This document shows positions 5,891-42,007 of a stretch of 64,000 nucleotides of DNA, piece after piece. The position numbers were made by a program, and so were the translations under genes. Under the pieces are notes generated by a model that was given only the letters and a program-made list of their open reading frames with translations, did no database searches and had not been told where the DNA came from. Each line of letters starts with the position of its first letter. Positions within the stretch are counted from its first letter, which is position 1. This DNA comes from an uncultured Clostridia bacterium (lineage in GTDB: Bacteria; Bacillota; DTU025; MWDF01), in the NCBI GenBank assembly GCA_964577435.1, contig CAZNZD010000001.1, positions 7,247 to 71,246 of the forward strand, read 5' to 3'.

Positions 5891-5914
5891 GCTCAAGCCA
5901 GGGCAGCTCATTAA

Positions 5915-5942: not shown

Positions 5943-5964
5943 AATCATGAAATAGGGGTTTGAA

Positions 5965-6912
5965 GTGGGCAAATATCTTATTAGGCGCATCTTGATAACC
6001 ATACCCGTGCTTTTCGGCATAACTTTCATAGTTTTCGCCATGGTGTCCTTCGCTCCGGGAAGTGCAATAAGCCTTATGCTCAGCAACGAGAACGTAAACG
6101 TCGCAAACGTCGACACTCTCGCCGAGGAGCTTGGGCTGGAGCTTCCGTGGTACCAGCAGTACGCGAAGTACATGGGCAGGCTCCTTAAAGGCGACATGGG
6201 GCGCTCCATCCAGTACAACAGGCCCGTCGGCGAGATGATATGGGAGAAAGTGGGGAACACTGTCCTGCTGTCAGTAAGCGCGATGCTTGTCGCGGTCCTC
6301 ATATCCATACCTCTCGGGGTTCTGGCTGCGGCGAAGCGGCGGTCGGCCATCGACTACCTTGCGACCGGCTTAGCCCTCGTCGGAGTTTCCATCCCCGGAT
6401 TCTACCTTAGCCTTATTCTCATAATCGTCTTCGGGCTCAAGCTCGGCTGGCTGCCGATAAGGGGCCTGCCCAGCTACGATGTGACCTTCGTGAAGATGGT
6501 GAGGCACCTTACCCTTCCTTCAATCGCCCTAGGGTCGATGCTGTCGGGCGTGCTGACTCGCCTGACAAGGGCATCCGTGCTGGAGGCGATGTCCCAGGAT
6601 TACGTAAGGACGGCAAGGTCGAAGGGGCTTTCGCAGACTTCGGTGCTGTTCAAGCATGCCTTGAGAAATGCGCTGCTACCAGTGCTTACGACGATTGGCA
6701 TGCAGTTCGGCTCCCTTCTCGGAGGCGCGGTGATAATTGAGACAATATTCTCGCTTCCCGGCCTGGGGATGCTTTCGATGAACGCAGTGAAATTCAGGGA
6801 CATACCGCTGATCCAGGGGACGGTGCTTGTGTTCGCAGTGGCATTCGTAATCGTCCAGCTGATAGTGGATATGCTGTATGTGCTGGTTGACCCGAGGATC
6901 AGATATGAGTGA
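5965..6912 (+). CDS. ABC transporter permease (DppB/OppB-like)
   Basis: GTG start. 315 aa polytopic membrane protein carrying an EAA-loop region characteristic of peptide permeases. Confidence 0.85.
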   Translation: MGKYLIRRILITIPVLFGITFIVFAMVSFAPGSAISLMLSNENVNVANVDTLAEELGLELPWYQQYAKYMGRLLKGDMGRSIQYNRPVGEMIWEKVGNTVLLSVSAMLVAVLISIPLGVLAAAKRRSAIDYLATGLALVGVSIPGFYLSLILIIVFGLKLGWLPIRGLPSYDVTFVKMVRHLTLPSIALGSMLSGVLTRLTRASVLEAMSQDYVRTARSKGLSQTSVLFKHALRNALLPVLTTIGMQFGSLLGGAVIIETIFSLPGLGMLSMNAVKFRDIPLIQGTVLVFAVAFVIVQLIVDMLYVLVDPRIRYE

Positions 6913-7786
6913 GAAGATCGGCGGCAAGGTATCGTTGCTACGGAAGAACAGGGTAATCAGGTCCTTCGCGAGGCATAAGCTTGGCTTGCTGGGGGTGTTC
7001 ATGCTGCTGGGGTTCGTGCTCATAGCTGCCCTGGCGCCTGTCATCATCCCCGCGGACCCTTACACGATGAAGCTGGAGGAGCCCTTCCTGCCCCTAGGAA
7101 GCCAAGGGCATCCTCTGGGCACGGACAATTTCGGAAGGGATATGCTCGCAAGGCTGGCTTATGGGGCGAGGATCTCCCTTCTAATAGGCATAGTGGTAGT
7201 CTCGGTGGCGGCAGTGCTGGGGACCGTGCTGGGCCTTCTGGCAGGCTACTACGGCGGCTGGGCAGACTTCGCGGTCATGAGGCTTGTGGAGGTGTTCCAT
7301 TCTTTCCCCTTCCTCATACTTGTTATAGCGGTCATGGCAATACTCGGTCCCAGCATATTCAACGTGATGTGGGTGCTGGGCGTGGTCAGCTGGCCGTCTT
7401 ATGCAAGGATAGTGCGCGCCCAGGTGCTTTCCCTCAAATCACAGGACTTCGTATCGGCCGCAAAGGCGACAGGCTGCGGGGATGCCAGGATAATCTTCCG
7501 GCATATCCTGCCCAACACTCTGACTCCGATAATCGTTCAGGCGACCCTAGGGATTCCAGGTGCCATACTCTCGTCTGCGAGCCTGGGTTTCCTAGGGTTC
7601 GGTGTGCAGCCCCCCACCCCTGAATGGGGCTCCATGGTATCTGAGGGTAAGGACTTCATAATGCTCAACTCTAACCTGATCATATGGCCGGGCCTGTGCA
7701 TCTTCATGGTGGTCCTTAGCTTCAATTTCATCGGGGATGCGCTGAGGGACACCCTTGACCCAAGGCTTGCAAGGGAGCTTAAATAG
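6905..7786 (+). CDS. ABC transporter permease (DppC/OppC-like)
   Basis: Start MSEKIGG overlaps the upstream stop (ATGAGTGA). N-terminal extension plus six TM helices, typical of OppC/DppC. Stop codon is TAG. Confidence 0.85.
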   Translation: MSEKIGGKVSLLRKNRVIRSFARHKLGLLGVFMLLGFVLIAALAPVIIPADPYTMKLEEPFLPLGSQGHPLGTDNFGRDMLARLAYGARISLLIGIVVVSVAAVLGTVLGLLAGYYGGWADFAVMRLVEVFHSFPFLILVIAVMAILGPSIFNVMWVLGVVSWPSYARIVRAQVLSLKSQDFVSAAKATGCGDARIIFRHILPNTLTPIIVQATLGIPGAILSSASLGFLGFGVQPPTPEWGSMVSEGKDFIMLNSNLIIWPGLCIFMVVLSFNFIGDALRDTLDPRLARELK

Positions 7787-7834
7787 GAAGCTTCGGCAGC
7801 GGCAGGAGCCGTGCCGATAGATGGAGGTAATCGG

Positions 7835-11451: not shown

Positions 11452-12927
11452 CTAGTTGCCCATATCAGGCTTGTCAGCCTCGCCTATGATGCTTCTTGCG
11501 ACATACCAAGAGGTGATCATGGCAGTAGGCACCCCGCCCGGGTTGTGGACATAATGCCCTACGGGATAGAAGCGCTTAATGGGCAGGTCCTCATCGAACT
11601 TGAAGCGTGGAGCCTTCGACGGATCCCAATTCCAGCCCGCAGTGGCACCTTTGCTGTTTCCTGTATACCTCTCGTAGGTAAGCGGTGAGGCGGCCTCCCG
11701 GACCAAGATGCCCGCCCGCAATCCCGGCAGGAACTCCTCGGCGCGAGCGATCAGCTCCTCTGCGGCTTCCCTTTTACGAACCAGGTAAGCCGCCCTGTCG
11801 TCCTTCAACCCCTCCCAGTCCTCATAGGGACTCAGTATGCCGACGAAAAGCGCATGCTTGCCTTCCGGTGCCACCGACGGGTCATCCTTGCTGAGAAGGA
11901 CCAACTGTATGTATTTGCCGTCGGCGCAGGTGAAGAAGACGTGGCTTCCTTGAAACCTCTTCAGGCCCGCAGATAGCCCCGGGTTCCCATCCAAGCCCAG
12001 GAACAGGGAGAATATTGATTCCGACGGCTTGGCTCTCTCAAGCTTCTCTGCCATTGTTCCGGGCAGATTGCCGCGCCCGATCAGATTAAAACATGTCTTC
12101 CTCAGGTCGGCAGCCGAAACCACCCAGTCGGAAGGGATGAAGCCTCCCTCCGAAAGCTCCACACCTTTCGCCCTTCCACCTTCTGTCACGATTCTCCGAA
12201 TCTCCTCCCCAAGGTGGATCTCACCGCCATGCTCTCTCACATAGCGGGCCATCAGGTCTGCAAGCTCCTGCAATCCTCCTTCGGGGACCCAGGCGTCGCC
12301 GTAGTAGGAGGCCCACATACCCAGCGTGTTCTTCCCGGTCATGACCGGATATCCCAGCTGGTTTAGCATCTGCCGTAGAAGCCTATCCTTGAAGAGGCTG
12401 TCGTGAAGGCTGCGGTTTGTGTTGCGTCCTGCGACAAGCGCCGCCCAGGGGAAAAGAGGATGCCTTACGATAAGCTTGAGCATGCTTATAGGCACGCCTT
12501 GCCCGAACATCATGCCGCTTTCCAGCATGTCCCGGAAGGCGCTGCTGCCGATTCCCACCCAGCGGAAGTACCGCCTGAGCGCCTGCTTCTCACCCGGAAA
12601 GTGCCCTGCAAGAAGCCTTTCGGTCTTACTCGGCCCATCTAGTAGGATGTCGTTTGGTCCCCAGCTCATCTGATGCTTAACCGGAATGAACCTCAAACAT
12701 TCCTTAAGGCCCAGCTCCTTGAGTATCGGAAAGATGATGCCGTTCGACCCGAAGGAGGTCGGACCGGCCGGGAAGGTGAAGCCTTCCCTCCTGAATGACG
12801 ACATATATCCTCCGGGCACTTTATGCTTCTCATACACTGCTACGGAGAAGCCTTGCCGGGCAAGATACGCAGCGATGGTAAGCCCCGCCATCCCCCCGCC
12901 GATTACCGCAACTGTCCTATCCTTCAT
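11452..12927 (-). CDS. FAD/NAD(P)-dependent oxidoreductase, phytoene-desaturase (CrtI/CrtN)-like family
   Basis: N-terminal dinucleotide-binding motif VAVIGGGMAGL. 491 aa with family-typical architecture. Confidence 0.8.
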   Translation of the reverse strand: MKDRTVAVIGGGMAGLTIAAYLARQGFSVAVYEKHKVPGGYMSSFRREGFTFPAGPTSFGSNGIIFPILKELGLKECLRFIPVKHQMSWGPNDILLDGPSKTERLLAGHFPGEKQALRRYFRWVGIGSSAFRDMLESGMMFGQGVPISMLKLIVRHPLFPWAALVAGRNTNRSLHDSLFKDRLLRQMLNQLGYPVMTGKNTLGMWASYYGDAWVPEGGLQELADLMARYVREHGGEIHLGEEIRRIVTEGGRAKGVELSEGGFIPSDWVVSAADLRKTCFNLIGRGNLPGTMAEKLERAKPSESIFSLFLGLDGNPGLSAGLKRFQGSHVFFTCADGKYIQLVLLSKDDPSVAPEGKHALFVGILSPYEDWEGLKDDRAAYLVRKREAAEELIARAEEFLPGLRAGILVREAASPLTYERYTGNSKGATAGWNWDPSKAPRFKFDEDLPIKRFYPVGHYVHNPGGVPTAMITSWYVARSIIGEADKPDMGN

Positions 12928-13816
12928 GGGCTTGAACCTCCTGGTTAACTACCTGCCTTCTAGCAAGGAGGATGGCTCCCAATATTACCAAGGCGATACC
13001 CGCTAGTGCTAATGCTGTAGATATGGCAGATTCCGGGCGAAGCAAGAATACGAGAAAGTATGCGGCAATTGGCAACACCTGCGAGGGGAAGTACTGGATC
13101 GGAACCAGCCTTGACACGTTCCCGCAGCTGAGCGCATGCTGTGTCTCCGAAATGCCCAGGATGCTACCGGCAAGCACAATGCCTGTCGCTGTCGCGGCAT
13201 AAAGAAGGTCGGCTGCCGAAAACCTTCCCGAGCTCCACCTGGCCGGCAGGGCCATAAGTATCCCCAGCCAGAGATTCGATTGGGAGAACAGCAATCCTGC
13301 GTTCAGGATCCTGAGAATGCCCCTCATGCGCCTATTTGCCTTCTGCAATGCATGGCAAGCCGATGAAAGCGCGGCTACAGATGCGGTGAAGAGGCCCAGG
13401 CGCAGAATGAAGGCAGTATCGTACAAGTCGATCGACCGGACATCTATCGACATGCGGCTTAGGCCGAAGGACGTGACAGCTGCCATTACAAGGGCTATGC
13501 CGGCTACTTCTCCCGCATTCAGCTTCTCTCCTGCGAGCCTGGCCGCACCTATAGCGAGAGGTATCAGGCCGATGGCCATAAGCCCGGGGAGCATGGCCGG
13601 ACCGATCATTGCCTGAGCCAGCACATTAAGCGGCACCCCGACGAGAAACTGAAGTGCGAACCCGGCAAGCCACAATGGATTGCGGATAACACGGCGCATA
13701 AGGCTCCCATCATGCGGCATCTTCATGATCGCCAGCTTCTGGACCAGTACGCCTATGTTGAAAGCCGTCCCCGCCGCCAAGGCGGCCGCCACTCCCGCCC
13801 AATAGGAACCGAGCAT
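12917..13816 (-). CDS. polytopic membrane transporter, DMT superfamily (EamA/NIPA-like)
   Basis: Start MLGSYWAG has GGGAGGG 5 nt upstream. About 10 TM helices with internal two-fold repeat character. Overlaps the downstream oxidoreductase start, implying one operon. Confidence 0.55.
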   Translation of the reverse strand: MLGSYWAGVAAALAAGTAFNIGVLVQKLAIMKMPHDGSLMRRVIRNPLWLAGFALQFLVGVPLNVLAQAMIGPAMLPGLMAIGLIPLAIGAARLAGEKLNAGEVAGIALVMAAVTSFGLSRMSIDVRSIDLYDTAFILRLGLFTASVAALSSACHALQKANRRMRGILRILNAGLLFSQSNLWLGILMALPARWSSGRFSAADLLYAATATGIVLAGSILGISETQHALSCGNVSRLVPIQYFPSQVLPIAAYFLVFLLRPESAISTALALAGIALVILGAILLARRQVVNQEVQAHEG

Positions 13817-13868
13817 CGTAACCCTCCCGCCGGGAAGGCCCAATAAGCGGGCCTTCCCCGATAAGCAC

Positions 13869-14564
13869 CTATACCTGAGCCGTCTCCAGCTTGCTTTCAT
13901 CTATCCCCCGCTTTAGAAGCCAGCCGAGGAAGGCGAACTCCGCGAACATGCCGGGGATTAGAAGGAACGCCTCCACGGACCCGCCGAAGCCCAGGAAGTG
14001 AGCCGCTACGGAAAGCAGCCCGCAGGCCGCCTCCACAATGAACAGCACGCCGTATCCTTTGGGGATGAACTTCGAGCGCCAGATCAGAAGCCCGAGCGGC
14101 AGCACCCAGAGCGCGAAGAAAGACTGCCCTATCATATATCCATGATTGTAGGCGTCGAAGCTGGACATGGCCAGCGCCTGCAGCTGAGCTTCGGAGAACG
14201 CCCCCATGTATGAGCCGGAGGTCAGTATCGTAAGCGGGGCGAGCTCGTTTAGCACATTCGACAGCAGAAGCACGGAGCCTGCCGCGGCGAAAAGGACCAT
14301 CATCTGAGCCAGGTTCTTGTTCACTGAGACCAGAAGCCTGTACAGCGCAATCGCAGTGAACAGGTAGCAGAGGGACATGAGTATGTCGCTAAGGATTCCG
14401 AAGCGGTACAGAAGCCCGTTTGCCAGGATGTTGCCCGCGGTAACCGCGGCGTCGCCCGGTATGAAGATGCCCTGACGGAAGAATAACTCCGCGAAAAGTC
14501 CGAATGCGGCCATGAGCAGGAAAAATATTCCGGCAAGCCTTGCAATTCCCTTAGTAGGATTCAT
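13869..14564 (-). CDS. DUF4386-like integral membrane protein
   Basis: 231 aa multi-TM protein. It is a paralog of the 15142-15876 product, with similar length, hydropathy and shared motifs. Confidence 0.55.
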   Translation of the reverse strand: MNPTKGIARLAGIFFLLMAAFGLFAELFFRQGIFIPGDAAVTAGNILANGLLYRFGILSDILMSLCYLFTAIALYRLLVSVNKNLAQMMVLFAAAGSVLLLSNVLNELAPLTILTSGSYMGAFSEAQLQALAMSSFDAYNHGYMIGQSFFALWVLPLGLLIWRSKFIPKGYGVLFIVEAACGLLSVAAHFLGFGGSVEAFLLIPGMFAEFAFLGWLLKRGIDESKLETAQV

Positions 14565-20030: not shown

Positions 20031-21794
20031 ATGGAACAAGTTGTCCTGACTGCTTTGTTCAATAACGCTGCGCTGCTTCTGGTGTTGTCAGTCATCTACG
20101 AGGCTACCTATAACCTGCCGCCGAGATACCGCCGCTTTGAGCCGTACTTCAGCGGCATGCTCATCGCCCTCATCTGCACTGCCGTCATGGTGATGCCCTT
20201 CACGCTGCAATCGGGGATAATCTTCGACACAAGGTCTATTTTGCTCAGTGTGACCGCCCTCATTTTCGGCCTGATTCCGACTGCAATCGCGGCGATTGTC
20301 GCCGCCATAGTCAGGCTGGTCATCGGAGGGACCGGGGCTCTGCCTGGCATAGCCGTCATCACGACAAGTTCTCTAATCGGCCTGGCATGGAGGCGCTGGT
20401 TGTATCCTAGGTCTAAGAAATGGCGCATGGTTAGCATCTATCTGATGAGCGTCTGCGTCCATGTAGTGATGCTGGCCTGCATGCTCCTTATCCCTTATCC
20501 GGACAACTTCACCGTTATTCGCGCCATCGCCTTCCCGGTGATGCTAGTCTACCCGATAGCGACCGTGCTTTTGAGCATGCTGCTTATTCGCCAGCAGGCC
20601 TTCAAGCATGCTCAGGAGCAGCTGATGCAATCCGAGGAGAGGTTCAGGCTGCTTTTCGACAGGGCCCCGCTCGGTTATCAATCCCTGGATTCTGAAGGAT
20701 ATTTCATAGACATCAATCAGCAATGGTGCGATACTCTTGGATATTCACGCGAAGAGGTCATCGGCAAGTGGTTCGGAGATTTCCTTTCCCCAGACAACAG
20801 GGAGGCATTCCGTAAGAGGTTCCCCGTATTCAAAGCTCAAGGTCATATCCATAGCGAATTCGAGGTGCTTCATAAAAGCGGCAAGCCTATATTCATCGCA
20901 TTCGAAGGGAGAATCGGTTACAACCTGGACGGGCAGTTCAAGCAGACTCACTGCATCCTGCAGGACATTACCAGCCAGAAGGCCGCCGAGGCGGCGCTAG
21001 CGGAAAGTGAGAGGACATACAGGAACATCACCGAGAACATGTCGGATGTAGTCTGGCAGACGGACCTGAACCTGAAGACCACTTATGTCAGCCCGTCGGT
21101 GCAAAGGCTCCTGGGAGAGACCCCGGAGGAGCATATGAAAAGGAGCCTGCAGGAGAAATTCTCGGCTCAGACGCTAAACGAGATAAGCTTCATGCTCTTC
21201 GAGGAGATGGAGAAGGAAAGCGATCCGAAAGCGGATAAGAACCGTTCCAGGAAGCTGGTTGTGGAGCATTTCAAGGCGGATGGCACTTCCGTATGGGTTG
21301 AGATGAACATATCTATAATGCGGGACAAGGCGGGCAAGGCGGTCGGACTTGTCGGAGTCTCCCGCGATGTCTCGCAGCGCAAGGCTGCGGAGCTGGCATT
21401 GGAGGAGAGCGAGCGCAGCAAGTCCGTCCTTCTGTCGAACCTTCCGGGAATGGCCTACAGGTGCAGCCTCGACAGAAAGAGGAGCATGCAGTTCGTCTCG
21501 GCCAGAAGCCTGAATCTCACCGGATATGCGCCGGAGAGCCTTATCGGCAACAAGGTGCTTTCCTATATTGACCTGATTGCACCCGAATTCCGAGAACCCA
21601 TTCGAAAGGAATGGGAGCGCATCCTCTCAGAGAGGCTGCCCATGAGCCTCGAATACGAGATAATTACCGCCTCAGGCCAAAGGAAATGGGTCATTGATAT
21701 GGGGCAAGGGGTATACAAAGAGAGCGGGGAGGCAGAGGCCTTCGAGGGAATCGTCCTTGACATCTCGGACAGGAAAAGGATGGAAAGCCCTTAG
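20031..21794 (+). CDS. membrane sensor: N-terminal 5TM (5TMR-LYT-like) domain plus three PAS domains, no output domain
   Basis: Five N-terminal TM helices, then three segments with PAS character separated by coiled linkers (e.g. ...QKAAEAALAESE...). The protein ends after the third PAS. Confidence 0.75.
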   Translation: MEQVVLTALFNNAALLLVLSVIYEATYNLPPRYRRFEPYFSGMLIALICTAVMVMPFTLQSGIIFDTRSILLSVTALIFGLIPTAIAAIVAAIVRLVIGGTGALPGIAVITTSSLIGLAWRRWLYPRSKKWRMVSIYLMSVCVHVVMLACMLLIPYPDNFTVIRAIAFPVMLVYPIATVLLSMLLIRQQAFKHAQEQLMQSEERFRLLFDRAPLGYQSLDSEGYFIDINQQWCDTLGYSREEVIGKWFGDFLSPDNREAFRKRFPVFKAQGHIHSEFEVLHKSGKPIFIAFEGRIGYNLDGQFKQTHCILQDITSQKAAEAALAESERTYRNITENMSDVVWQTDLNLKTTYVSPSVQRLLGETPEEHMKRSLQEKFSAQTLNEISFMLFEEMEKESDPKADKNRSRKLVVEHFKADGTSVWVEMNISIMRDKAGKAVGLVGVSRDVSQRKAAELALEESERSKSVLLSNLPGMAYRCSLDRKRSMQFVSARSLNLTGYAPESLIGNKVLSYIDLIAPEFREPIRKEWERILSERLPMSLEYEIITASGQRKWVIDMGQGVYKESGEAEAFEGIVLDISDRKRMESP

Positions 21795-22049: not shown

Positions 22050-23270
22050 ATGGACAAGAAGGGCTTCAAGAAGATCGTCCTGGCATATTCAGGCGGGCTG
22101 GATACTTCCATAATAATCCCCTGGCTCAAGGAGAACTACGATGGTTGCGAGGTAATCGCAGTTACAGGCGATGTCGGCCAGGCAGACGAGCTGGAGGGCC
22201 TTGAAGAGAAGGCCCTTAAGACCGGCGCATCCAAGCTTTATGTGCTGGATCTGACCGACGATTTCGTGAACGGATACATCGTGCCTACCTTAAAGGCCGG
22301 TGCTGTATACGAAGAGTATATGCTCGGAACAAGCCTTGCCCGTCCCTGCATCGCGAAGGGCCTTGTGGAAGTGGCCCTCAAGGAGGGAGCGGACGCCGTA
22401 TGCCATGGCTGCACCGGGAAGGGCAACGACCAGGTGCGCTTCGAGCTTGCCATCAAGCACTTCGCCCCGACAATGCCGGTGATCGCCCCGTGGAGGGAGT
22501 GGAGCATCGTCTCAAGGGAGGAGGAGATCGAGTACGCAAGGGCGCACAATGTGCCCCTTAAGATAACCCATGAGACGAACTACTCGAAGGACAAGAACCT
22601 ATGGCACCTTTCGCATGAGGGGCTTGACCTTGAAGATCCCGGCAACGAGCCTCTATATGACAAGGAGGGCTTCCTTGAGATAGGAGTCTCCCCCGCAAAA
22701 GCCCCGGATGAACCCTCATATGTCGCGTTGGAGTTCGAAAAGGGAGTCCCAGTAGGCCTGGACGGCGCGCGGATGAGCGCAAAGCAGATCATCTACAAAC
22801 TGAATGAGATCGGCGGGGTAAATGGCATAGGACTTCTGGACCTGGTGGAAAACAGGCTCGTCGGTATGAAATGCAGGGGCATATACGAGACGCCGGGAGG
22901 GGCTATCTTATATAGGGCCCACACTGTCCTTGAGACGATCTGCCTCGACAAGATGACCATGCATGAGAAGCAGCGGTTGGCGATCACCTTCGCCGAGCTT
23001 GTCTACAACGGCTTGTGGTTCACCCCTCTCAGGGAGGCGCTCTCCGCTTTCGTGGACAAGACGCAGGAGCAGGTTACAGGCACAGTAAGGTTGAAACTAT
23101 ACAAGGGAAACATCATAAACGCCGGGGTGTGGAGCCCGTACTCCTTGTACTCGGAGAGCATTGCGACTTTCGGCAAGAGCGACTACAACCAGAAGGACGC
23201 GGAGGGCTTCATAAACCTATATGGGCTGCCGATAAAGATCCAGGCCATGATAGACAGGAAGAAGTCATAG
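22050..23270 (+). CDS. argG: argininosuccinate synthase
   Basis: [11 protein letters not shown]-loop and full-length similarity to ArgG. GGAGGT RBS. Stop codon is TAG. Confidence 0.9.
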
Positions 23271-23290
23271 GGCTTAACGAGGTGTGAACG

Positions 23291-24682
23291 ATGGGCAAGA
23301 TATGGGCCGGCAGGCTCGGCGGCTCCCTTGATGAAAGGGCGGACGACTTCAACTCCTCGATAGGCTTTGATTGCAGGCTCTATAAACACGACATCGAGGG
23401 TTCGATCGCCCACGCCGGCATGCTTGCCGCCAAAGGGATAATCCCCCAGCAGGACGCAGATGCCATCATCGAGGGGCTTGCAGGAATCCTGGAGGACCTT
23501 GAGCATGGAAGACTCGAGGTCGATATGGCTTGTGAAGACATCCATACCTTCGTTGAGCAAGTGCTTACGGCCCGCATCGGAGACGCCGGGAAGAAGCTTC
23601 ATACGGCGAGAAGCCGCAACGACCAGGTGGCGCTCGATCTGCGCATGTATCTGCGAGATGAGGTCCTGGCGATAATCAAGCTTATCGAGGGCCTGTTGGA
23701 TGCCATTGCCACCAAAGCGGACGCTCACAAGGCAACAATAATGCCCGGTTATACGCATCTGCAGCGCGCACAGCCTGTAACCTTCGGGCATCATCTGATG
23801 GCATACGCCATGATGCTCATCAGGGACATAGGCAGGTTGAAGGACGCATACGCAAGGATGAACGTTTCACCGATCGGCTGCTGCGCGCTTGCGGGAACCA
23901 CCTATGATATCGACCGTGACACGGAGGCAAGGCAGCTGGGCTTCGAAGGAGTTGCCCTAAACAGCATTGACGCGGTGTCCGACAGGGACTTCTGCATCGA
24001 GATCCAAGGCGCATTTGCTATCTTGATGATGCACTTGTCACGATTCTCGGAAGAGATAATACTCTGGTCCTCGCTGGAATTCGGCTTTATCGAGCTGGAT
24101 GCCGGTTTCTCTACGGGCTCATCCATAATGCCGCAGAAGAAGAACCCCGATATTGCCGAGCTTGTCCGCGGAAAGACGGGAAGAATCTATGGAAACCTTA
24201 CTGCGACACTCACCATGATGAAAGGGCTTCCGCTTGCCTATAACAAGGATATGTAGGAGGATAAGGAGGCAGTCTTCGATAGCGTGGAAACTGTAAAGAA
24301 GAGCCTCTCTGTCTTCGCTCCGATGGTTGCGACCATGCATGTCAATGCGGATAGCATGATGGCGGCAGCGCAGGCAGGTTTCATTAACGCCACCGACTTG
24401 GCTGATTACCTTGTGAGGAAGGGGTTGCCCTTCCGAAGCGCATACAAGATCGTTGGGCAGATAGTTGCCAGGTGCCTTGCCGAAGGCAAGGTGCTGGATA
24501 CGCTGCCACTTGATGTGTATAGGCATTATAGCGGCCTATTCGATGTGGATCTTTACAGCGATATCGACCTTGGCGCATGTGTCGGGAGGCGCGTCTCGAA
24601 GGGCGGCACATCCCAACAATCTGTCGATATGCAGATAGCATACATTCGAGATTTCCTTAATAAATGTGTTCAAAAGGTCTAA
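23291..24682 (+). pseudogene. argH: argininosuccinate lyase interrupted by an in-frame TAG at 24254-24256 (a Gln codon elsewhere in the family)
   Basis: ORFs 23291-24256 and 24284-24682 are in the same frame and together reconstitute a full-length ArgH. The junction reads ...AYNKDM*EDKEAVFDSVETV versus the conserved ...NKDMQEDKE. Confidence 0.6.
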
Positions 24683-25166: not shown

Positions 25167-27317
25167 TTACGGGCGCGCGATGACCTTCGCATCGTTAGCC
25201 TTGAATGCCGATTCGCTGTAATAACGGATGCCCGTCTTCAGATCCAGGCTGTAGTGCTTCATGAAGTCCCACATGATCTCCGCGTGGCCGGCTATGTTGT
25301 TGTGGGCTTCATATAGGGTGAAGACGTATTCCAACACAGGGTACCCTTCGTTATTGGCCCAGGTGAAGGTGCGGAAACGCGCCATGCTGGTGTTCCAGTC
25401 GGAGATATCCCCCACCTTGTTACCCATTGCGCCACCATTTAAGGCATTCCCCCCGCTGTACTCGATAGCGGCAAGGAGGTTCCCCTTTCCTAGCGAATTT
25501 GCGGTGGTGTAGTAATTCATCCACTTGGTTATGCCTGTAGGGGCGGCAGCGGTGCCTATGCTGTCCCAGATGATGTCTGCACCGGCGGCCTTGGCCTCCT
25601 CGGCGGTCGCATAACCAGGTATGCCGCGGTTCGAGTAGTTGCCCTCGCCGATGACCAAGCCGACTGGGATGAAGCTGTTGCTCGCTCCGTCGGTACCCAG
25701 GTTGCCCGGGAAGTTGCTTGGATAAGCCGCAGCCAGTTGTTTGTTGGTCGTGGCGTCCATGGCCAGGTTGTTGGTGGCGCCGCCGCCGGCCGACTGACCG
25801 GTAGCATATATCCTGTTCATGTCAAAGCGGCCATCAGCTGCCAGGAAGTCCCTCATGGCCGTGAACATGACCGTATTGCTGATGCTTGGCAGATTGCCTG
25901 TTCCAGGGGAGGCGGTGCGAGTCTGAAGGAAGATCGCAAAGCCATTCTCTGCCGCGACCTGCCACCACATTGTGGAATCCATGAACAGGTTGGAAGTCTG
26001 AGAAGCGCCATGCCATACCGTGACTACTGGTATATTGCTGTTTCCTGCAGTCTCAGGCACATACAGCAGAGTATCCATTACGTAGCCGCTGGGCAGTGTC
26101 AGGGTCTTGATGGTTATCGTGCCCTTAACCGGCTCCTTGTAGTTGCGTACTTTGGCCGATACGATGCCTGAGGCCTCCTTCTTCGCAGAGGTGAACCTTT
26201 CTACCTGGATTGCAGTGTAATCCAGGCGGTAATTGAGGGCGTTGCCGTAGCTGATGGACACGTCATACCGTGAGTAATCCGTCAGCTGGTCGCGCAGCTC
26301 CCGGTTGAAGGCATAAGTACTGGTAGCGTCGCCCGCTATGGTTACAGTCGTAACCTTGGAGATGGGACCGGCGAACTCCGTAGCCCATGTGTCCTTCTTC
26401 TGGGCAAACACGCTGCCGGTGGCGGTGATGCTGCCGAAAGCAGTCAACGTGACGTCGGCCGCAGCACCGGTGGCCTTATTGACTGTCCTCCAGTAATTGA
26501 GGCTGTCCGTACCCTTGTAGTTCACAAGCCATGTCGGTACGGGCATGTCGTCCTTCTCCAGCAGGCCCTCGAAGTCGCGGTGATTCTTGTTGACGATGTC
26601 CTGCAGCCGGGTGGCCATCTGGATCAATGCCTGCTGACGGTCGATGACTAGATTCCTGTCGCCGTCTGTCATGTGAGCCCAGCCGAAGGAGACGGAACCG
26701 ATATCCGTAAGGGCGCTCGCCCCGACGGATGCTCCGTTCACGAAAGCCTGCGAGATGACCAGATTCGGATTCTCGGCAGCCCATGCTTCCAGAGCAGCTG
26801 CACCTTCGCCGTAACCTTCCAGGTAGAAGACCCCGAAGGTGGTGAAATATGTCCCGACGCCGCCATGCTTGGCCTTGGCCGCATCGATATAAGCCTTCTC
26901 GTCCGGTATGCTGCCCCAAGTGCCGGTTGCTTTATCCGGCAACAGCAGGTAGAGACACTCGCCAGTCTCATCGGCTATGCGCTTCCAGCCGCTGCTTATA
27001 AGCCAGCTGTCCACGTCCGACTTGTTGGGGACAGCTATGAAATGGAAGTAGGGACGAAGCACCGCAGTCGCGGGAATATACCAGCGGACCTCGCGGTTGG
27101 CGAAGCTTCCATCCAGTGCGGAGTAGAAATATCCGGTGGTGGGAAGCTGATTGGCTTCAGTAACGTCACGCACGGGAACCGGTTCATCAGCTAAGTTCTT
27201 GGCTTTCAACTCACTCTCGGGCGCAGCATCGCCAACTGTAATGTCGGCAGACGTGGAGACCGCAGCCGCCATGGCCAGGATAAGCGCCAGAAGCACGACA
27301 AACCATCTCTGTTTCAT
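25167..27317 (-). CDS. secreted tandem alpha/beta-hydrolase (esterase / PHB-depolymerase-like) protein
   Basis: Signal peptide, then two GxSxG nucleophile elbows (NGASVG in the N-half, GQSAGG in the C-half). 716 aa. Confidence 0.6.
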   Translation of the reverse strand: MKQRWFVVLLALILAMAAAVSTSADITVGDAAPESELKAKNLADEPVPVRDVTEANQLPTTGYFYSALDGSFANREVRWYIPATAVLRPYFHFIAVPNKSDVDSWLISSGWKRIADETGECLYLLLPDKATGTWGSIPDEKAYIDAAKAKHGGVGTYFTTFGVFYLEGYGEGAAALEAWAAENPNLVISQAFVNGASVGASALTDIGSVSFGWAHMTDGDRNLVIDRQQALIQMATRLQDIVNKNHRDFEGLLEKDDMPVPTWLVNYKGTDSLNYWRTVNKATGAAADVTLTAFGSITATGSVFAQKKDTWATEFAGPISKVTTVTIAGDATSTYAFNRELRDQLTDYSRYDVSISYGNALNYRLDYTAIQVERFTSAKKEASGIVSAKVRNYKEPVKGTITIKTLTLPSGYVMDTLLYVPETAGNSNIPVVTVWHGASQTSNLFMDSTMWWQVAAENGFAIFLQTRTASPGTGNLPSISNTVMFTAMRDFLAADGRFDMNRIYATGQSAGGGATNNLAMDATTNKQLAAAYPSNFPGNLGTDGASNSFIPVGLVIGEGNYSNRGIPGYATAEEAKAAGADIIWDSIGTAAAPTGITKWMNYYTTANSLGKGNLLAAIEYSGGNALNGGAMGNKVGDISDWNTSMARFRTFTWANNEGYPVLEYVFTLYEAHNNIAGHAEIMWDFMKHYSLDLKTGIRYYSESAFKANDAKVIARP

Positions 27318-29500: not shown

Positions 29501-30868
29501 CTACTTGGCGATGGCCGCCAGCTGCCCGAAGAGGGCGTCAAGCGCTTCTGTGTAAGCCTTGTTGTTGACGCCTGTCCCACCGTTCTTGTCGACGTAGCCC
29601 GGCTGTATGTTCTCCCATGTGAACATAAGCTCTATCTGGCCGAGGATCGGGTCGGGATTGCCCTTGGCGTCCTTGCGGTCCTTGTTGTAGACAAAGACAT
29701 AGGGCACCTGGAGTTTGTTTGCGGTCACAACTTTTCCTGCAGCGTCTGTGTACTGGACGTTGTTCTTGTCGATTGCATAGGCTGTCTCTATGCCGGGGAA
29801 GTACTTGAGGACAAGGTCTACATACATGTTCGCATACGCGTTCTTGGTATCGCGGACCTGAAGCACGTTGGAATCAAGCCTTGTGTCCCAAGTGTAGATC
29901 TTATCGATGTTGTACTTCTTTGCGTACTGGTTGACAAGCTTCACCACAGCCTGGGTGTTCGGGCACCATGGTCCGCCGAACATGAAGACGAAGTTGCCCG
30001 GGCTTTCCAGGATCTTGGTGAGCTCGTAATAGGATGTAGTCTGCATCACCCAGGGTTCATCCTTCGCATCTAGTATCGTAGCCTTCGCCCTTGCGTTGTA
30101 AGCAGTGCTGAAGTACTCGAAGTCGGTGAAAGTGTCAAGCTTGGCAGTCTTCTTGCCAAGTATGGACTTCGTCGATATCAGGTCGAATAGTGGGCGGATC
30201 TCCTTCTTGTAAGCTTCGATTTTAGCCGGGTCGTCCTTTCCGTTGGTCTGGAAGTCGGCCTCCCACCTCAGCATCTTCTCATAAGAGGCGAGTATGGGGG
30301 CGGGCTTGCCGTCAGCGGTGACGCCCTTCTTGTTGTAGATGAACAGGAAGGGCACCTGCAGCTTGTTGGCTACTACGGTCTGACCCTCCGCGTTCACGTA
30401 ACTTACATTGTTGACGTTCTTGTCATACAGGGTGACTATGTTGGGCAGGTACTTATTCACAAGGTCTACATAAAGGTTGGCGTATGGGTTTTTGGTGTCG
30501 CGGATGTGCATGGAGGCTCCATCAAGCTTGAAGTCGAAGTTGTATATTGCCTCGACCCCATACTCCTTCGCCACATCGTTGATCTGACCGATTACAGCCT
30601 GGGTGTTGCCGCACCAAGCTCCCCCGAACAGTATCATGTATGTGCCTTCGCTTTCGAACAGCTTTATCAGCTGGTCGTATGAGACCGTCCTGAAGACGGG
30701 TTCAGGGTCTGTCAGGTGGGGGAAATTGGCGCTGTTGAAGAACTGGTACGTCGCATTGATTCCGGTCTTAGCCGCGGCTTCCGCGCCCGTTCCGACCCAC
30801 AAGCTGGCTCCTATTGCCACAATGCAAAGCAGCAACATGGCCGCCCTAGTTAATCTCCTTGCCATCAT
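29501..30868 (-). CDS. secreted protein with two tandem thioredoxin-like single-Cys modules (WCGNTQAV / WCPNTQAV)
   Basis: Signal peptide, then two ~200-aa repeats about 45-50% identical. Both carry FGGxWCxNTQAV, RDTKNxYANxYVDLVxKY and NKLQVPxxFxYNK. Confidence 0.6.
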   Translation of the reverse strand: MMARRLTRAAMLLLCIVAIGASLWVGTGAEAAAKTGINATYQFFNSANFPHLTDPEPVFRTVSYDQLIKLFESEGTYMILFGGAWCGNTQAVIGQINDVAKEYGVEAIYNFDFKLDGASMHIRDTKNPYANLYVDLVNKYLPNIVTLYDKNVNNVSYVNAEGQTVVANKLQVPFLFIYNKKGVTADGKPAPILASYEKMLRWEADFQTNGKDDPAKIEAYKKEIRPLFDLISTKSILGKKTAKLDTFTDFEYFSTAYNARAKATILDAKDEPWVMQTTSYYELTKILESPGNFVFMFGGPWCPNTQAVVKLVNQYAKKYNIDKIYTWDTRLDSNVLQVRDTKNAYANMYVDLVLKYFPGIETAYAIDKNNVQYTDAAGKVVTANKLQVPYVFVYNKDRKDAKGNPDPILGQIELMFTWENIQPGYVDKNGGTGVNNKAYTEALDALFGQLAAIAK

Positions 30869-33559: not shown

Positions 33560-36268
33560 ATGATATCATGGCTTTCTTGCCTGTGGGCTAAGACACCCAC
33601 GGACGAAACGGCTGCCACCTATCACCCGCTTCTTCTTCACATGCTGGATGCCGCCGCCTGTGCAAGAGCCTTGCTTAAAAGGGAGCCTCAAAGCACCTCT
33701 CGCATGCTGGCCGCTGCTTTGATGATGGACCCAGACGAGCTCCCCTCGCTGCTCAGCTTCCTAGTCGCCTGCCACGATATCGGAAAGGCGGCGCCCGGGT
33801 TTCAGCTGAAGTGGCCTCCTTTCAACAGGATGGCCGCTGCTGAAGGGATAACGATTCCGCATCACCCGGATACCAGCTTCAATCATGCCTTCCTTAGCCA
33901 GTCAGTGCTTGAGACAGAACTGCCTTCCCTTGGTTGGGATCCAGGCAGGGCAAGGCTACTTTCATATGCCGTTGGTTATCATCACGGGGTTCGCCCCTCT
34001 TTCAGCACAATCCTTGAACTGGAGTCGAATAGAGGCGCCATAGGGGATAAAAGCTGGTCTGAAGCCAGATGTGACATCCTTCGCCTGTTAGCCGGTTTCT
34101 TCAAGGTGAAGCCGCCCACATCGGAATATCCCCACGATCCCGCCGGTGAGGACTTCGCTATGCTGGCCGGATTCATCACCATATCGGACTGGATAGCCTC
34201 CGATACCAGGATGTTCCCCTACGGTACGGCCGATGACTGCCTTGATCTTGAGACATGGTACAAGATCAGATGCAAGCTTGCTGCAGCAGCTTTGGATCGA
34301 ATCGGTTGGAATGTGAAGTCCCCTCTTACTGAAATGCCTTTATCCTTTACAGATGTCTTCAGCAAGTATTCCCCGCGACCCCTTCAGTCTGCGATGGCTC
34401 AAGCCACGCTCGCCACTGAGACCCCCTCCGTTTTCGTAATAGAGGCCCCGATGGGCGAGGGAAAGACGGAGGCCGCACTCTTCTCATACCTCGTCCTGCA
34501 GGCTCGCCTCGGGCATAGAGGCCTTTACATGGCGATGCCGACAAGGGCTACTGGAAATGCCATGTATGACAGAGTACGCGAATTCCTGGATGGCCTGAAA
34601 CTTGACAGGCCGATCGACCTCCAGCTCGTGCACGGAGCGGCAGTCAGGCAAAAGCCTGAAGGCGATGTAAGAGCTTTCACAGCTAACAGCGAAAGCCATC
34701 CATCCTCTGCTCCGGCTGCTGACATCGAGGCGTCGGAGTGGTTCGGAAGCAGGAAGAAGGCGCTGCTGTCCGAAACGGGTGTAGGAACCATAGACCAGGC
34801 TTTGATGTCCGTGCTGAGCGTCAGGCACAATTACCTCAGGATGTGGGGACTGGCCAATAAGGTGGTCGTCTTCGATGAAGTGCACGCCTACGACGCTTAT
34901 ACCGGCACGCTTCTTCTGGAGCTTATACGTTGGCTCCACTACCTTAACTCCTCTGTGGTGATCCTCTCTGCCACATTGCCGGACAAGTTCAGGTCCGAGC
35001 TGGCTTCCGTCACAGGAAGCGATAAGCTTGTGACCACTTTGCCGCAGGCAAAAGCCGAATACCCGAGAATCACAGTGATGGACAGGCACGGTATGAAAGA
35101 GTCAGGCTTCCCGTATGACGAAACCCTCTCAAGGGAGATTGCGATAATCGGCGCATCTGTGGATGCAGACGCTCCGAGGTTGATCATAGAAAGCCAGTTG
35201 GAGAACAGTGGCATGGCCGCTGTCATCGCTAATACCGTCGACCGGGCCCAAGCGGTCTATCGCGCATTTGGCCCGGGGGATGCCATACGCAAAGACGGGG
35301 AGACTGTCGGCAAGCTCCTTCCGGATGGCACAGAGATCTACTTGTTCCACGCCAGATTCCCCTCGGATTCAAGGAGGGTAAGGGAGGGCAATGCACTCGA
35401 TCTATTCTTCAGCAAGAACGAGACAAGGCAAGGGCGCAAGGTGATAGTCGCCACTCAGGTCATCGAGCAAAGCCTGGACCTGGACTTCGACCTTATGATA
35501 ACCGACCTTGCTCCGGTAGACCTCCTTCTGCAGAGGGCAGGAAGGCTTTGGAGGAAGCCTCGCAATGCAAGGCCGACGGAGAAGCCACTTCTTTACGTGG
35601 CCGGATTGTACGAAAGGCTGTTTGACTTCGGACGGCCTCTCTGGTGGAGCGCAGTATACAGGGAGGACATCCTGATTAAGACATGGGCGCTGCTAAGGAA
35701 CCGGACTGCAATCCGGATGCCGGCCGATATCGACCTTCTTGTGCAGGCGGCATATGGAGAGGATATTACGATGCTTGGGGATATTACGGAGGCTGAGCGG
35801 CAGCGCTATGAGAGGGCCGAACAAGAGAGCCAGGGAACCGTATCGGCGATGAGGTGCGCCGCGAGGAGTACTGCCATAGGCCACCCTGATGACGGGTCGT
35901 GGGAAGACCCCAGCCGGCTGTGTCTGCTTGAGGAGGCTTCTCCGGAAGTAAATCGGATGCTGGTCGCTAAGACGAGGAGTTCGGACAGCAGCATGACTGC
36001 AGTATTGATCCGGCCCGATTCAATCTCATCGCTCACCGAAGTGAAGGATTCCCAGACCTTGAAGGACCTTATAGGCAGAAGCATCGGCATTTCCCGCAAG
36101 TCCGTTATCTCCGCTCTTGGCAGGGCAGGGGTTCCGGAGGCATGGAAGAAGGAGCCCGTCTTGAGATTCTGTTATCCGATGCTTCTTGATGATGATGGGA
36201 GGTGGCAGATGGACCGCAACGTCAGGCTGGATGATGAACTCGGACTCGTTTATGGTCAGGAGGTATAA
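33560..36268 (+). CDS. cas3: Cas3 HD-nuclease/helicase (type I-E)
   Basis: N-terminal HD domain (HMLDAAA...CHDIGKAAPGFQ), DEVH box (VVVFDEVHAYD) and a helicase C-terminal domain. 902 aa. Confidence 0.9.
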   Translation: MISWLSCLWAKTPTDETAATYHPLLLHMLDAAACARALLKREPQSTSRMLAAALMMDPDELPSLLSFLVACHDIGKAAPGFQLKWPPFNRMAAAEGITIPHHPDTSFNHAFLSQSVLETELPSLGWDPGRARLLSYAVGYHHGVRPSFSTILELESNRGAIGDKSWSEARCDILRLLAGFFKVKPPTSEYPHDPAGEDFAMLAGFITISDWIASDTRMFPYGTADDCLDLETWYKIRCKLAAAALDRIGWNVKSPLTEMPLSFTDVFSKYSPRPLQSAMAQATLATETPSVFVIEAPMGEGKTEAALFSYLVLQARLGHRGLYMAMPTRATGNAMYDRVREFLDGLKLDRPIDLQLVHGAAVRQKPEGDVRAFTANSESHPSSAPAADIEASEWFGSRKKALLSETGVGTIDQALMSVLSVRHNYLRMWGLANKVVVFDEVHAYDAYTGTLLLELIRWLHYLNSSVVILSATLPDKFRSELASVTGSDKLVTTLPQAKAEYPRITVMDRHGMKESGFPYDETLSREIAIIGASVDADAPRLIIESQLENSGMAAVIANTVDRAQAVYRAFGPGDAIRKDGETVGKLLPDGTEIYLFHARFPSDSRRVREGNALDLFFSKNETRQGRKVIVATQVIEQSLDLDFDLMITDLAPVDLLLQRAGRLWRKPRNARPTEKPLLYVAGLYERLFDFGRPLWWSAVYREDILIKTWALLRNRTAIRMPADIDLLVQAAYGEDITMLGDITEAERQRYERAEQESQGTVSAMRCAARSTAIGHPDDGSWEDPSRLCLLEEASPEVNRMLVAKTRSSDSSMTAVLIRPDSISSLTEVKDSQTLKDLIGRSIGISRKSVISALGRAGVPEAWKKEPVLRFCYPMLLDDDGRWQMDRNVRLDDELGLVYGQEV

Positions 36269-36269
36269 G

Positions 36270-37805
36270 ATGGGCAGTTTCAACCTTTTAGACGAGGCAT
36301 GGATCCCGGTGAGCATGCTCGACGGGACAAAACGAAGCCTGGGGCTGAAGGATATTTTTCGGAATGCAGGTTCAATACTGGCAATCGAGCACACCTCTCC
36401 GCTTATAGTCGGATCAGTATACAGGCTGTTGCTTGCTGTGCTCTACAGGGCTTTTGACGGACCCTCCTCGCTCGGCGAGGCTTCACGGATATATGAGGAC
36501 GGGTTAAGCAGAAGGTTGCCCGACATCCATGATTACCTGGAGAGATGGCGGGAGAGATTCTACCTATTCGATGACGCGCACCCCTTTTTCCAAGTCCCGG
36601 ATTATATGCCCAAGTCCAGGCGATACTGGACTGCACTGGCCGCCGAGATGAACGACGACAACTCGAAAGTCTTGTTCGACCACACAGGCTTTGAGGGCTT
36701 ACAGGAGGACTTCATGGCCCTTGACCCAATAAACCACGCAGAAGCGGCATTATTCCTGCTTGCCACTCAGGCATTCTCAGTATGCAAGGGAAAAAGCGAG
36801 TTCCAATATACCAAGGGTGCGCCCATAGCCTCTTCAGCGGCTTTCATTGTTCAAGGGACATCCTTAGAGGATTCCCTGTTACTCATGTTGCATCCATATC
36901 CCAACAAGGAAGTGCAGCAGGCCGACTTGCCTGTCTGGGAGCGGCCCCCACTATCGTCATGCCAGCTGAAGGAGGGGATATCCCGCGAGATCTCTGGTTA
37001 TGCCGACCTTTACACATGGATGAGCAGGTCCGTGAAGCTACTCGCCGAGAACGATGGGAAGGTGCATTCTATCGGCCTAGCATCAGGGGTAGTAGATGAT
37101 AACACCCTCAATCTGGAGGATCCAATGTGCGGTTTCAGGACCGACCAGAAGTTCGGGCGGCTTCCGCTTCAATTCGGCGAAAGGGGTTTGTGGAGGAACT
37201 TCGATTCGCTGATTCCATCAAGCTCTGCAGATTGTGCCCCTAAAGTAGTAGAGAATGCCATTGCACTAATGAGAAGGAGTGGTAAGCATTCCGTATTCAG
37301 CCTTCTTGCAGTCGGCCAGAGTAACGACAAGGCCAAGATCGAGTTCTGGCGGCAGGAGAGGTACTCCATGCCGGAAGCCATGCTCTCCGACCTCGACGCA
37401 AGAGGTATCGTGCAATCGGCAATACGGCTGGCGGAGGATTACAGCCAACCGATAATCGGCGCCTGCAGGACATATGCAAAGAAGATGCTCTCCGGAGGCG
37501 ACCGGGATCCTGACATGAAAGACGTCACCTCCTTCTTAAGAAGCGCGACGGCGATCCAGGATTATTGGACAGGGGCCGAAAGGGGATTCCATGAGCTTTT
37601 ATCCGCGATGGATACGCAGTTCGACCCTGATGAAGTAGAAGACGCCTGGAGAGACCACCTAAGACGAACAGCCCTTAAGTCCTGGGATGACTATATGGCA
37701 TCACAGACCGGCATAAGGTCCATAGTTGCTCAAGCTCACGGCAAGCGCACTCTAATGGTAAAGCTTAATCATCTATCTCCACAGCAAGGGGGGACGGTAT
37801 CATGA
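36270..37805 (+). CDS. cse1: Cse1/CasA (Cas8e) large Cascade subunit
   Basis: Starts 1 nt after the cas3 stop with a GGAGGT RBS. N-terminus MGSFNLLDEAWIPV is typical of CasA. 511 aa. Confidence 0.85.
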   Translation: MGSFNLLDEAWIPVSMLDGTKRSLGLKDIFRNAGSILAIEHTSPLIVGSVYRLLLAVLYRAFDGPSSLGEASRIYEDGLSRRLPDIHDYLERWRERFYLFDDAHPFFQVPDYMPKSRRYWTALAAEMNDDNSKVLFDHTGFEGLQEDFMALDPINHAEAALFLLATQAFSVCKGKSEFQYTKGAPIASSAAFIVQGTSLEDSLLLMLHPYPNKEVQQADLPVWERPPLSSCQLKEGISREISGYADLYTWMSRSVKLLAENDGKVHSIGLASGVVDDNTLNLEDPMCGFRTDQKFGRLPLQFGERGLWRNFDSLIPSSSADCAPKVVENAIALMRRSGKHSVFSLLAVGQSNDKAKIEFWRQERYSMPEAMLSDLDARGIVQSAIRLAEDYSQPIIGACRTYAKKMLSGGDRDPDMKDVTSFLRSATAIQDYWTGAERGFHELLSAMDTQFDPDEVEDAWRDHLRRTALKSWDDYMASQTGIRSIVAQAHGKRTLMVKLNHLSPQQGGTVS

Positions 37806-38284
37806 ACGGTTTCATCGACCGGCTCGAGGAGCTTAATGAAGGTGACCCCAAAGTCAGGGCAGAGCTGAAAAGGAGCCTTTCATTCGACCCCGGCACATAT
37901 CCGAGGGTATTCGGATTTGTTGAGCCCTGGGTGCAGAAAACGCAGCTGAATGATTCGAGGCGCATAGCCTACTACCTAGTTGCAGGACTATGGGCGATGA
38001 ACTGGAGCGAGGCGACGGGAAGGGGTGGCAATTCAATCGGAAAAGCCTGCCTCCTACTGAGAAACCAGAAGGACTCCTCGAGCATGGATGCCCGGTTCAT
38101 CAACCTTTTGGAGGCTGATGAGGGGCAGCTTCCCAACAGGCTGCGGCAGATTGTGTCCCTTCTGAAGGAGATACCTATAGACTTCAGACAGCTGCTGGAT
38201 GACGTAGTCTTTTGGGGCTTCGAAGACAAGCGCATCCAGATAAGGTGGGCCAAGGAATACTTCGGTGGAATTGAAATCCAATAA
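37802..38284 (+). CDS. cse2: Cse2/CasB (Cas11e) small Cascade subunit
   Basis: 160 aa alpha-helical protein in the position and size expected for CasB. Overlaps cse1 by ATGA. Confidence 0.85.
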   Translation: MNGFIDRLEELNEGDPKVRAELKRSLSFDPGTYPRVFGFVEPWVQKTQLNDSRRIAYYLVAGLWAMNWSEATGRGGNSIGKACLLLRNQKDSSSMDARFINLLEADEGQLPNRLRQIVSLLKEIPIDFRQLLDDVVFWGFEDKRIQIRWAKEYFGGIEIQ

Positions 38285-38297
38285 AGGAGGTAGGAAA

Positions 38298-39449
38298 GTG
38301 AACAGACTGCTAGTTGAAGTGCATGTCCTTCAGAACTTCGCCCCGTCCAATCTTAACAGGGATGATACCGGAGCACCCAAAGATGCGATTTTCGGGGGCT
38401 CCAGAAGAGCCAGGATATCGAGCCAGTGCCTTAAAAGGTCAGTACGGGAGTACTTTAGGGAAAAGGCAGAAGATGGAGTTATTGCCGTCGATGATTTAGC
38501 CATAAGGACTAAGAGGCTGCACGCCATGCTTCTTGATTCTCTTGAGCCTTTGGGAAGGAGGCCTGAGGAATCGGAGGGTAAAATCAAGACCGCATTGTCG
38601 TGGATAAACCTGTCTTTGGACGAAAAGAATGAGAATAAGAGCCAGTATCTTCTTTTTGTAGGGCCAAGGGAAGTAAGCGACATAGCCAGGATCATCAACG
38701 ACAAATGGGACCTTATCCTAGTGGCTGAGCTAGGCGGCGAAGAGAAGAAAGCCAAGAAGAAGGATGCAGCAAAAGCTTCAGACCCCAAGGTGGCAGATGC
38801 ACTCCGTAAGGCATTAGACGGCGGCAAGGCTATAGATCTGGCTTTGTTCGGAAGGATGCTTGCCGACATGCCCGGTAAGAACGCCGATGCCTCATGCCAG
38901 GTGGCGCACGCGATCTCAACTCATGCAGTTGAAAGGGAGTTCGACTTCTATACCGCGATCGACGACCTAAAGCCGGATGACACCTCAGGGGCTGATATGA
39001 TGGGTACCGTGGAGTTCAACTCCGCCTGCTTCTATAGATACGCCGTTCTGGATTGGGAGAAATTTCTTAGTAACCTTCAAGGGGATGCTGAGCTGGCCAG
39101 GAAGGCCGCTCGTTTATTCATTGAGAGCTTCGTGATGGCGGAGCCGAGCGGAAAGCAGAACTCCTTCGCAGCCCATAACCCACCGGAGTTCGTCATGGTC
39201 TCATTGGTTACGAAAGGACAACCCCTCAACCTTCTTAACTCATTCGAAAGGCCTGTGTATTCGAAGAAGGGGCTCACTGCAGCCTCTGTAGACGCCCTAA
39301 CGGATAAGGCCAAAGCTTTAAATACAGCCTATTCCAGGGCTTCTGATAATTTCATTCTGAACCTGACAAGCTCCGACGCCGAAGGCCTCGGTATCAAGGT
39401 TGGCACCCTTAACGACCTGCTTGATAAGACAGCCAGCAGACTGGCTTAG
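38298..39449 (+). CDS. cas7e: Cas7e/CasC Cascade backbone subunit
   Basis: GTG start with AGGAGG 7 nt upstream. Motif HVLQNFAPSNLNRDDTGAPKD is diagnostic of CasC. Confidence 0.85.
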   Translation: MNRLLVEVHVLQNFAPSNLNRDDTGAPKDAIFGGSRRARISSQCLKRSVREYFREKAEDGVIAVDDLAIRTKRLHAMLLDSLEPLGRRPEESEGKIKTALSWINLSLDEKNENKSQYLLFVGPREVSDIARIINDKWDLILVAELGGEEKKAKKKDAAKASDPKVADALRKALDGGKAIDLALFGRMLADMPGKNADASCQVAHAISTHAVEREFDFYTAIDDLKPDDTSGADMMGTVEFNSACFYRYAVLDWEKFLSNLQGDAELARKAARLFIESFVMAEPSGKQNSFAAHNPPEFVMVSLVTKGQPLNLLNSFERPVYSKKGLTAASVDALTDKAKALNTAYSRASDNFILNLTSSDAEGLGIKVGTLNDLLDKTASRLA

Positions 39450-39459
39450 GAGTGATAGA

Positions 39460-40131: not shown

Positions 40132-40140
40132 GGTGGAGAT

Positions 40141-40766: not shown

Positions 40767-40770
<4 letters not shown>
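40141..40770 (+). CDS. cas6e: Cas6e/CasE crRNA endoribonuclease
   Basis: C-terminal glycine-rich loop GIGHGKALGLGLL. 209 aa. Confidence 0.85.
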
Positions 40771-41979
<1,209 letters not shown>

Positions 41980-42007
41980 GTTGTTATGCAGGCGATATTC
42001 TCTAAGA

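Follow-up and report, generated by a model that had tools for sequence, protein, structure and literature searches.

The window, a stretch of 64,000 nucleotides (64 kb) that was analyzed as a whole, contains argG followed by argH, the gene for argininosuccinate lyase (ASL), in which a single amber codon interrupts an otherwise continuous reading frame. The features of this locus, all on the forward (+) strand, are the following:

22050..23270, +, argG (argininosuccinate synthase), intact, with its TAG stop at 23268-23270
23279..23284, +, Shine-Dalgarno-like GAGGTG, 6 nt 5' of the argH ATG, read from the sequence
23291-24682, +, whole argH frame, one frame with a single in-frame TAG at 24254-24256
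23291..24253, +, 5' part of argH, codons 1-321, Lyase_1 domain including the GSSIMPQKKNP signature loop
24254..24256, +, in-frame amber TAG at the codon of an invariant Gln (Q322 in E. coli ASL)
24257..24682, +, 3' part of argH, 141 sense codons and TAA in the same frame, ASL_C2 domain
24257..24316, +, imperfect 60-nt hairpin beginning at the base after the TAG; GAGGAUAAGGAGGC..GUCUUC pairs with GAAGAGCCUCUCUGUCUUC
24263..24286, +, Shine-Dalgarno-like AAGGAGG (24263-24269) and GTG (24284-24286), the first in-frame start-capable codon past the TAG

The ATG-started ORF (23291..24256) encodes 321 aa and is terminated by the TAG, after which the frame stays open until TAA 24680-24682. No second stop, frameshift or other lesion was found in these 141 codons. 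The translation across the junction reads LAYNKDM*EDKEAVF, in agreement with the earlier note, which had placed two argH segments in one frame with the junction NKDM-TAG-EDKE.

When Gln was placed at codon 322, the product comprised 463 aa (junction peptide ...AYNKDMQEDKEAVFDSVETVK) and matched the argH equivalog model TIGR00838 from end to end, with 628.5 bits over model positions 1-454 of 455 and a curated cut-off of 279.5 bits. The 5' part alone scored 474.7 bits over positions 1-319 of 455, and the fragment starting at GTG 24284 matched positions 331-454. The read-through product was also aligned with E. coli ASL (PDB 1TJ7) at E = 1e-129, and identical genes in the Logan collection carry the domains PF00206 (5' part) and PF14698 (3' part). 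Within the fumarase/aspartase superfamily, the likeness to ArgH thus covers the whole length, the fumarate-lyase signature GSSxMPxKxN (present as GSSIMPQKKNP), the YNKDMQEDKE motif and the usual argG-argH operon order. In contrast to ArgH proteins such as the E. coli enzyme, the Gln codon of the motif is TAG, so that the frame does not pass uninterrupted through YNKDxQEDKE and the annotated product ends at residue 321. The locus is argH by descent, but it is disrupted as written.

The neighboring argG gene had been described as intact, and full-length matches to NF001770 (573.6 bits, model positions 4-398 of 401) and TIGR00032 (460 bits) support this. The mechanically called ORF begins at TTG 22035, while homologs align from ATG 22050; in the alignment to two relatives argG was free of lesions. 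Genes for two family-5 solute-binding proteins (SBP_bac_5), two Opp-type permeases and an M14 carboxypeptidase lie 5' of argG, and the sister genome GCA_964545975 shows the same synteny of this block with argGH.

Ancestral codon and age of the lesion

The closest argH relatives were found in the sister genome GCA_964545975 (88% amino acid identity) and in ERZ25039513 (78%), which served as the outgroup; identity to ArgH of Oscillospiraceae MAGs was about 70%. Together, the similarities of ArgH and YchF assign the organism, a gut-type Firmicute, to an uncultured Bacillota/Clostridia lineage. The argH TAG is one base away from CAG, and both closest relatives carry CAG in this column. The comparison of alleles with relatives that the earlier note had proposed therefore bears out its reading of the amber codon as a single CAG-to-TAG change.

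Conservation at this column was complete. Gln is encoded in all 161 other argH loci with a locatable motif, taken from GTDB genomes and metagenomes, of which 146 were recovered with a strict motif pattern and 15 with a looser one (one further locus could not be resolved). The codon is CAG in 128 and 14 of them, respectively, and CAA in 18 and 1. The same position is occupied by Gln in the solved E. coli and Arabidopsis enzymes, and we take it to correspond to Gln328 of duck delta-2 crystallin, a substrate contact. The literature was searched for what this Gln does in the ASL active site and yielded nothing directly usable, so that its observed invariance carries the argument. Since CAG is the preferred Gln codon of the window (225 CAG against 54 CAA), CAG-to-TAG changes have a large mutational target.

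For the age of the lesion, substitutions were assigned by parsimony to the lineage of the window and to the sister lineage, with ERZ25039513 as outgroup. The resulting dN/dS values are as follows:

argH codons 1-321: window lineage 0.117, sister lineage 0.130
argH codons 323-463: window lineage 0.313, sister lineage 0.576
argG: window lineage 0.097, sister lineage 0.075

The C-terminal domain of ArgH evolves faster in both lineages, and replacement changes downstream of the TAG were not in excess in the window lineage (Fisher p = 0.30). Neither multiple lesions nor a downstream dN/dS approaching 1, as expected in a pseudogene at an advanced stage of decay, was observed. Because the downstream ratio is not raised relative to the sister and argG is strongly constrained, the lesion would be young. 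Purifying selection therefore acted on the arginine pathway during practically the whole period after the split from the sister. The nonsense mutation must then be very recent, unless argH is still read through; if argH is a pseudogene, the substitution pattern would make it a very young one.

TAG as a stop codon in the window

In bacteria, TAG is normally the rarest stop codon. Among 38 credible gene ends in the window, TAG was used 20 times, TGA 12 times and TAA 6 times. TAG gene ends were also common at the related loci, with 11 of 19 in the outgroup and 5 of 14 in the sister, and a preference for TAG stops appears to characterize this uncultured Bacillota lineage. A G follows the stop (+4 base) at 12 of the 20 genuine TAG ends, and the argH TAG is likewise followed by G. 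The claim that TAG is a genuine and frequent stop was thus well founded. The list of TAG-ended genes in the earlier note is right for both solute-binding protein genes, argG, the M14 gene and the permease 6878..7786, whereas the second permease (5965..6912) has a TGA stop.

All frames were scanned with TAG as a sense codon, and no other gene with an in-frame TAG was found in the 64 kb (about 40 genes). The two best candidates were inspected and rejected. The stretch 2225-3748 consists of a lipoprotein gene, non-coding-looking sequence and a new start, and so represents two genes. The gene at 60333-61910 was not extended past its TAG, as the sequence beyond it looks non-coding. The permease 6878-7786 and the M14 gene 7811-9184 are two separate genes in the sister genome too.

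The tRNA content of the window, determined with ARAGORN and Rfam, was limited to tRNA-Lys(CTT), tRNA-Met(CAT) and tRNA-Leu(TAA). Neither program found a tRNA-CUA in the window, Rfam reported no other family, and no Pyl-related or methylamine-methyltransferase domain was present among the approximately 40 window proteins scanned. The search for a suppressor tRNA or pyl genes that had been suggested was therefore negative within the 64-kb window. As far as 64 kb shows, TAG as the majority stop, together with the lack of any other TAG-interrupted gene, excludes genome-wide recoding, and the earlier argument against UAG being decoded as sense throughout the genome gains further weight.

Explanations of the amber codon in argH

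The most probable explanation, favored with good though not complete confidence, is that argH carries a real and recent CAG-to-TAG null mutation and has become an incipient pseudogene, with arginine auxotrophy as the probable result. A recent C-to-T transition would have converted the CAG codon of the invariant Gln of argininosuccinate lyase into amber TAG. As TAG is the most used terminator here, release factor 1 would be expected to end ArgH translation after residue 321. Both the remainder of the central helix bundle and the entire C-terminal domain would be missing from the 321-aa product, which should be inactive. ArgH activity should be lost, and from such a null allele arginine auxotrophy of this uncultured Bacillota anaerobe is predicted. 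With peptide scavenging, which the adjacent peptide uptake genes suggest, the organism would be able to tolerate its failure to make arginine. Truncation by a single CAG-to-TAG change was one of the options originally offered, and it is the one that remains once error and genome-wide recoding are set aside.

Of the rival explanations, a leaky or suppressed but functional allele fares best, although it is unlikely. UAG would be read as Gln by a near-cognate tRNA-Gln(CUG) or by a supE-like tRNA-Gln(CUA) encoded elsewhere, with the 3' hairpin possibly helping, and the gene would function at a reduced level with wild-type ArgH as its product. An intact run of 141 codons (downstream dN/dS 0.31) next to an intact argG is also what a functional, read-through gene looks like. 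In bacteria, UAG mistranslation inserts Gln through tRNA-Gln, which forms a G-U pair with the first base of the codon (PMC9481147). As this is the ancestral residue, any read-through product would be wild-type ArgH, and in this respect the locus resembles supE-type suppression or near-cognate Gln read-through. Unlike in supE-type suppression, however, the window holds no suppressor tRNA, TAG is the dominant stop and basal read-through is of the order of 1 in 10,000. The measured values for E. coli and two Pseudomonas species are only about 0.005-0.02% (PMC9481147). An efficient amber suppressor would moreover extend about half of all proteins, given that TAG is the majority stop, and would thus come at a very high cost, and the +4 base G is the one found at most genuine TAG stops of the window. 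A suppressor tRNA or a second argH may possibly lie outside the 64 kb. Of amber suppression as the earlier note had raised it, a site-specific or low-level form is what is left as a possibility, and nothing in the window supports it.

The hairpin after the TAG was evaluated as a possible contributor to read-through. A 120-nt segment containing it folded with an MFE of -43.4 kcal/mol (z = -2.53). The 66-nt hairpin segment reached -25.5 kcal/mol and ranked 2-4 among 149 homologous segments (mean -14.3, SD 4.6), and is thus one of the most stable, which speaks for read-through. However, the same hairpin is present in the CAG-bearing sister at -23.7 kcal/mol and, in weaker form, in the outgroup (-16.2), so that it did not evolve for read-through. 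Its stem is formed by the conserved GAGGAYAAGGAGG (E-D-K-E) paired with CCUC...GUCUUC (S-L-x-V-F).

A stable hairpin directly after an in-frame stop resembles PYLIS, which follows UAG in mtmB, and bacterial SECIS, which follows UGA. In contrast to these elements, the argH hairpin is conserved coding sequence found also in the CAG sister, and no Pyl or Sec machinery is evident. As the structure pre-dates the mutation, a role as a dedicated TAG recoding signal was rejected; it was inherited from the CAG-bearing ancestor and is probably incidental. On the window lineage, the replacement Ala340Ser (GCC to TCT) added two base pairs to the hairpin.

A stronger form of the read-through explanation, in which UAG-322 is maintained and read as Gln by a near-cognate tRNA-Gln or a weak suppressor tRNA encoded elsewhere, promoted by the stable hairpin, is a good deal less probable still. 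If it were true, low and possibly condition-dependent production of wild-type ArgH would act as a translational throttle on arginine synthesis in an organism that uses UAG as its main terminator.

An artefact of sequencing, assembly or DNA damage, with C as the true base at 24254, is very unlikely. A single C-to-T change is the commonest type of error and of damage. However, exact look-up retrieved the 321-aa product and the 132-aa downstream fragment both from the NCBI contig (106,909 bp) and from separately assembled Logan contigs of three runs (SRR10083292, SRR10083293 and SRR10083294), all three of which read GATATGTAGGAGGAT at the TAG site. In the contig of SRR10083293, argH has one A-to-C change (D57A) relative to the window, at a site away from the TAG. 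At 90% identity, the 321-aa product falls into a cluster of three, made up of two 321-aa forms and a 469-aa protein of the sister species, and an intact argH allele of this species was absent among approximately 15 billion proteins. Metagenome contigs, scanned by exact pattern and with protein guidance, and GTDB species genomes likewise yielded no further argH locus of the same species, with best identities of 68-71%. No comparable lesion is present in any other gene of the 64-kb window.

Since independent assemblies of three runs contain the same T, the option of a sequencing or assembly error raised in the earlier note can be largely set aside. No allele other than the TAG form turned up for this species in the public data that were covered. 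The three accessions are consecutive and probably represent one study rather than independent populations, a point that leaves some room for an artefact; a text search for them returned no paper. Because the runs almost certainly share one study, these data do not demonstrate fixation of the allele in nature at large.

A split enzyme is slightly less probable again. Translation would stop at the TAG and re-initiate at GTG 24284, and the 321-aa and 132-aa fragments would form an active lyase. An SD-like sequence and an in-frame GTG do lie 7-30 nt past the stop, the two fragments are each annotated as a gene (Lyase_1 and ASL_C2 domains, respectively), and GTG 24284 could possibly serve as a re-initiation site for a 132-aa C-terminal fragment, though a poorly spaced one. 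Its SD-to-start distance is 14 nt, and the AGGAGG is conserved E-D-K-E coding sequence that relatives share and that is buried in the hairpin stem. Neither fragment would contain residues 322-331 (QEDKEAVFDS; model positions 320-330) from the invariant YNKDxQEDKE motif. The spacing, the buried SD sequence and the missing residues make a functional split enzyme unlikely, and no natural split ASL was seen among approximately 160 loci.

Pyrrolysine insertion or genome-wide UAG reassignment, for which nothing speaks beyond the in-frame TAG itself, is effectively refuted, as 20 of 38 genes are TAG-terminated, the argH position is an invariant Gln, and the window contains neither the signs of pyrrolysine decoding (pylT/pylSBCD, rare UAG stops, UAG in methylamine methyltransferases, a tRNA-CUA) nor those of reassignment as in some phages and ciliates (many in-frame TAG codons, TAG no longer a terminator).

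The preferred explanation, a recent null allele, has close counterparts in classical amber auxotrophic alleles and in young pseudogenes of biosynthetic genes in host-associated or community-dependent bacteria. The common traits are one transition in an otherwise intact gene that was constrained until recently, an intact pathway neighbor and adjacent peptide uptake genes, and no difference in kind was noted. Everything points to an event of an ordinary type, with no special decoding of the stop codon, and nothing new is learned about the genetic code or recoding unless the improbable read-through explanation is true.

For annotation, the two ORFs represent one disrupted argH and the pathway is to be scored as broken: the MAG is to be counted as lacking a functional argH, despite both halves being called as proteins with ASL domains. 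The locus would offer a clean case of a biosynthetic gene just after inactivation, as it has a single lesion, nothing downstream has decayed and the operon partner is intact. A young loss of argH fits gene loss in cross-feeding or peptide-rich communities.

Surroundings of argGH and other features

A block of about 13 kb between the M14 gene and argG is missing from the syntenic locus of the sister genome. The gene at 20031-21794 (+) encodes a sensor that combines a 5TMR-LYT membrane domain with three or four PAS domains. Its TAG follows directly after the last PAS domain, there is no output domain (GGDEF, HisKA or similar), and the gap to argG is 240 bp. This gene may have been truncated through rearrangement or insertion.

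A complete type I-E CRISPR-Cas locus (cas3, cse1, cse2, cas7, cas5, cas6e, cas1) was found at 33560-41678. It is followed by a very large CRISPR array (about 42007-48350, approximately 6.3 kb) with at least 103 repeat units at 61-nt spacing and the repeat core GCTTTCCCCGCAGGCGCGGGGATGAACCG. Several of the listed ORFs at 43.4-46.7 kb lie inside this array and are not genes.

In the outgroup ERZ25039513, proB (AA_kinase) and proA (Aldedh), located at 5797-7760 upstream of proC-argG-argH, are each present as two short fragments. These are probably either frameshift errors of long-read assembly or real pseudogenes; the contigs bear 'contig_' naming.

Three ORFs of the window, all on the minus strand, had no Pfam match: 25167-27317 (716 aa), with a signal-peptide-like N-terminus, 29501-30868 (455 aa) and 12917-13900 (327 aa). 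For YchF (51610-52884, minus strand), the mechanical ORF comprises 424 aa, whereas homologs have about 352 aa and cover 83% of it, which places the true start approximately 70 codons downstream of the first GTG. Its best named match, at 79%, was annotated as 'Firmicutes bacterium'.
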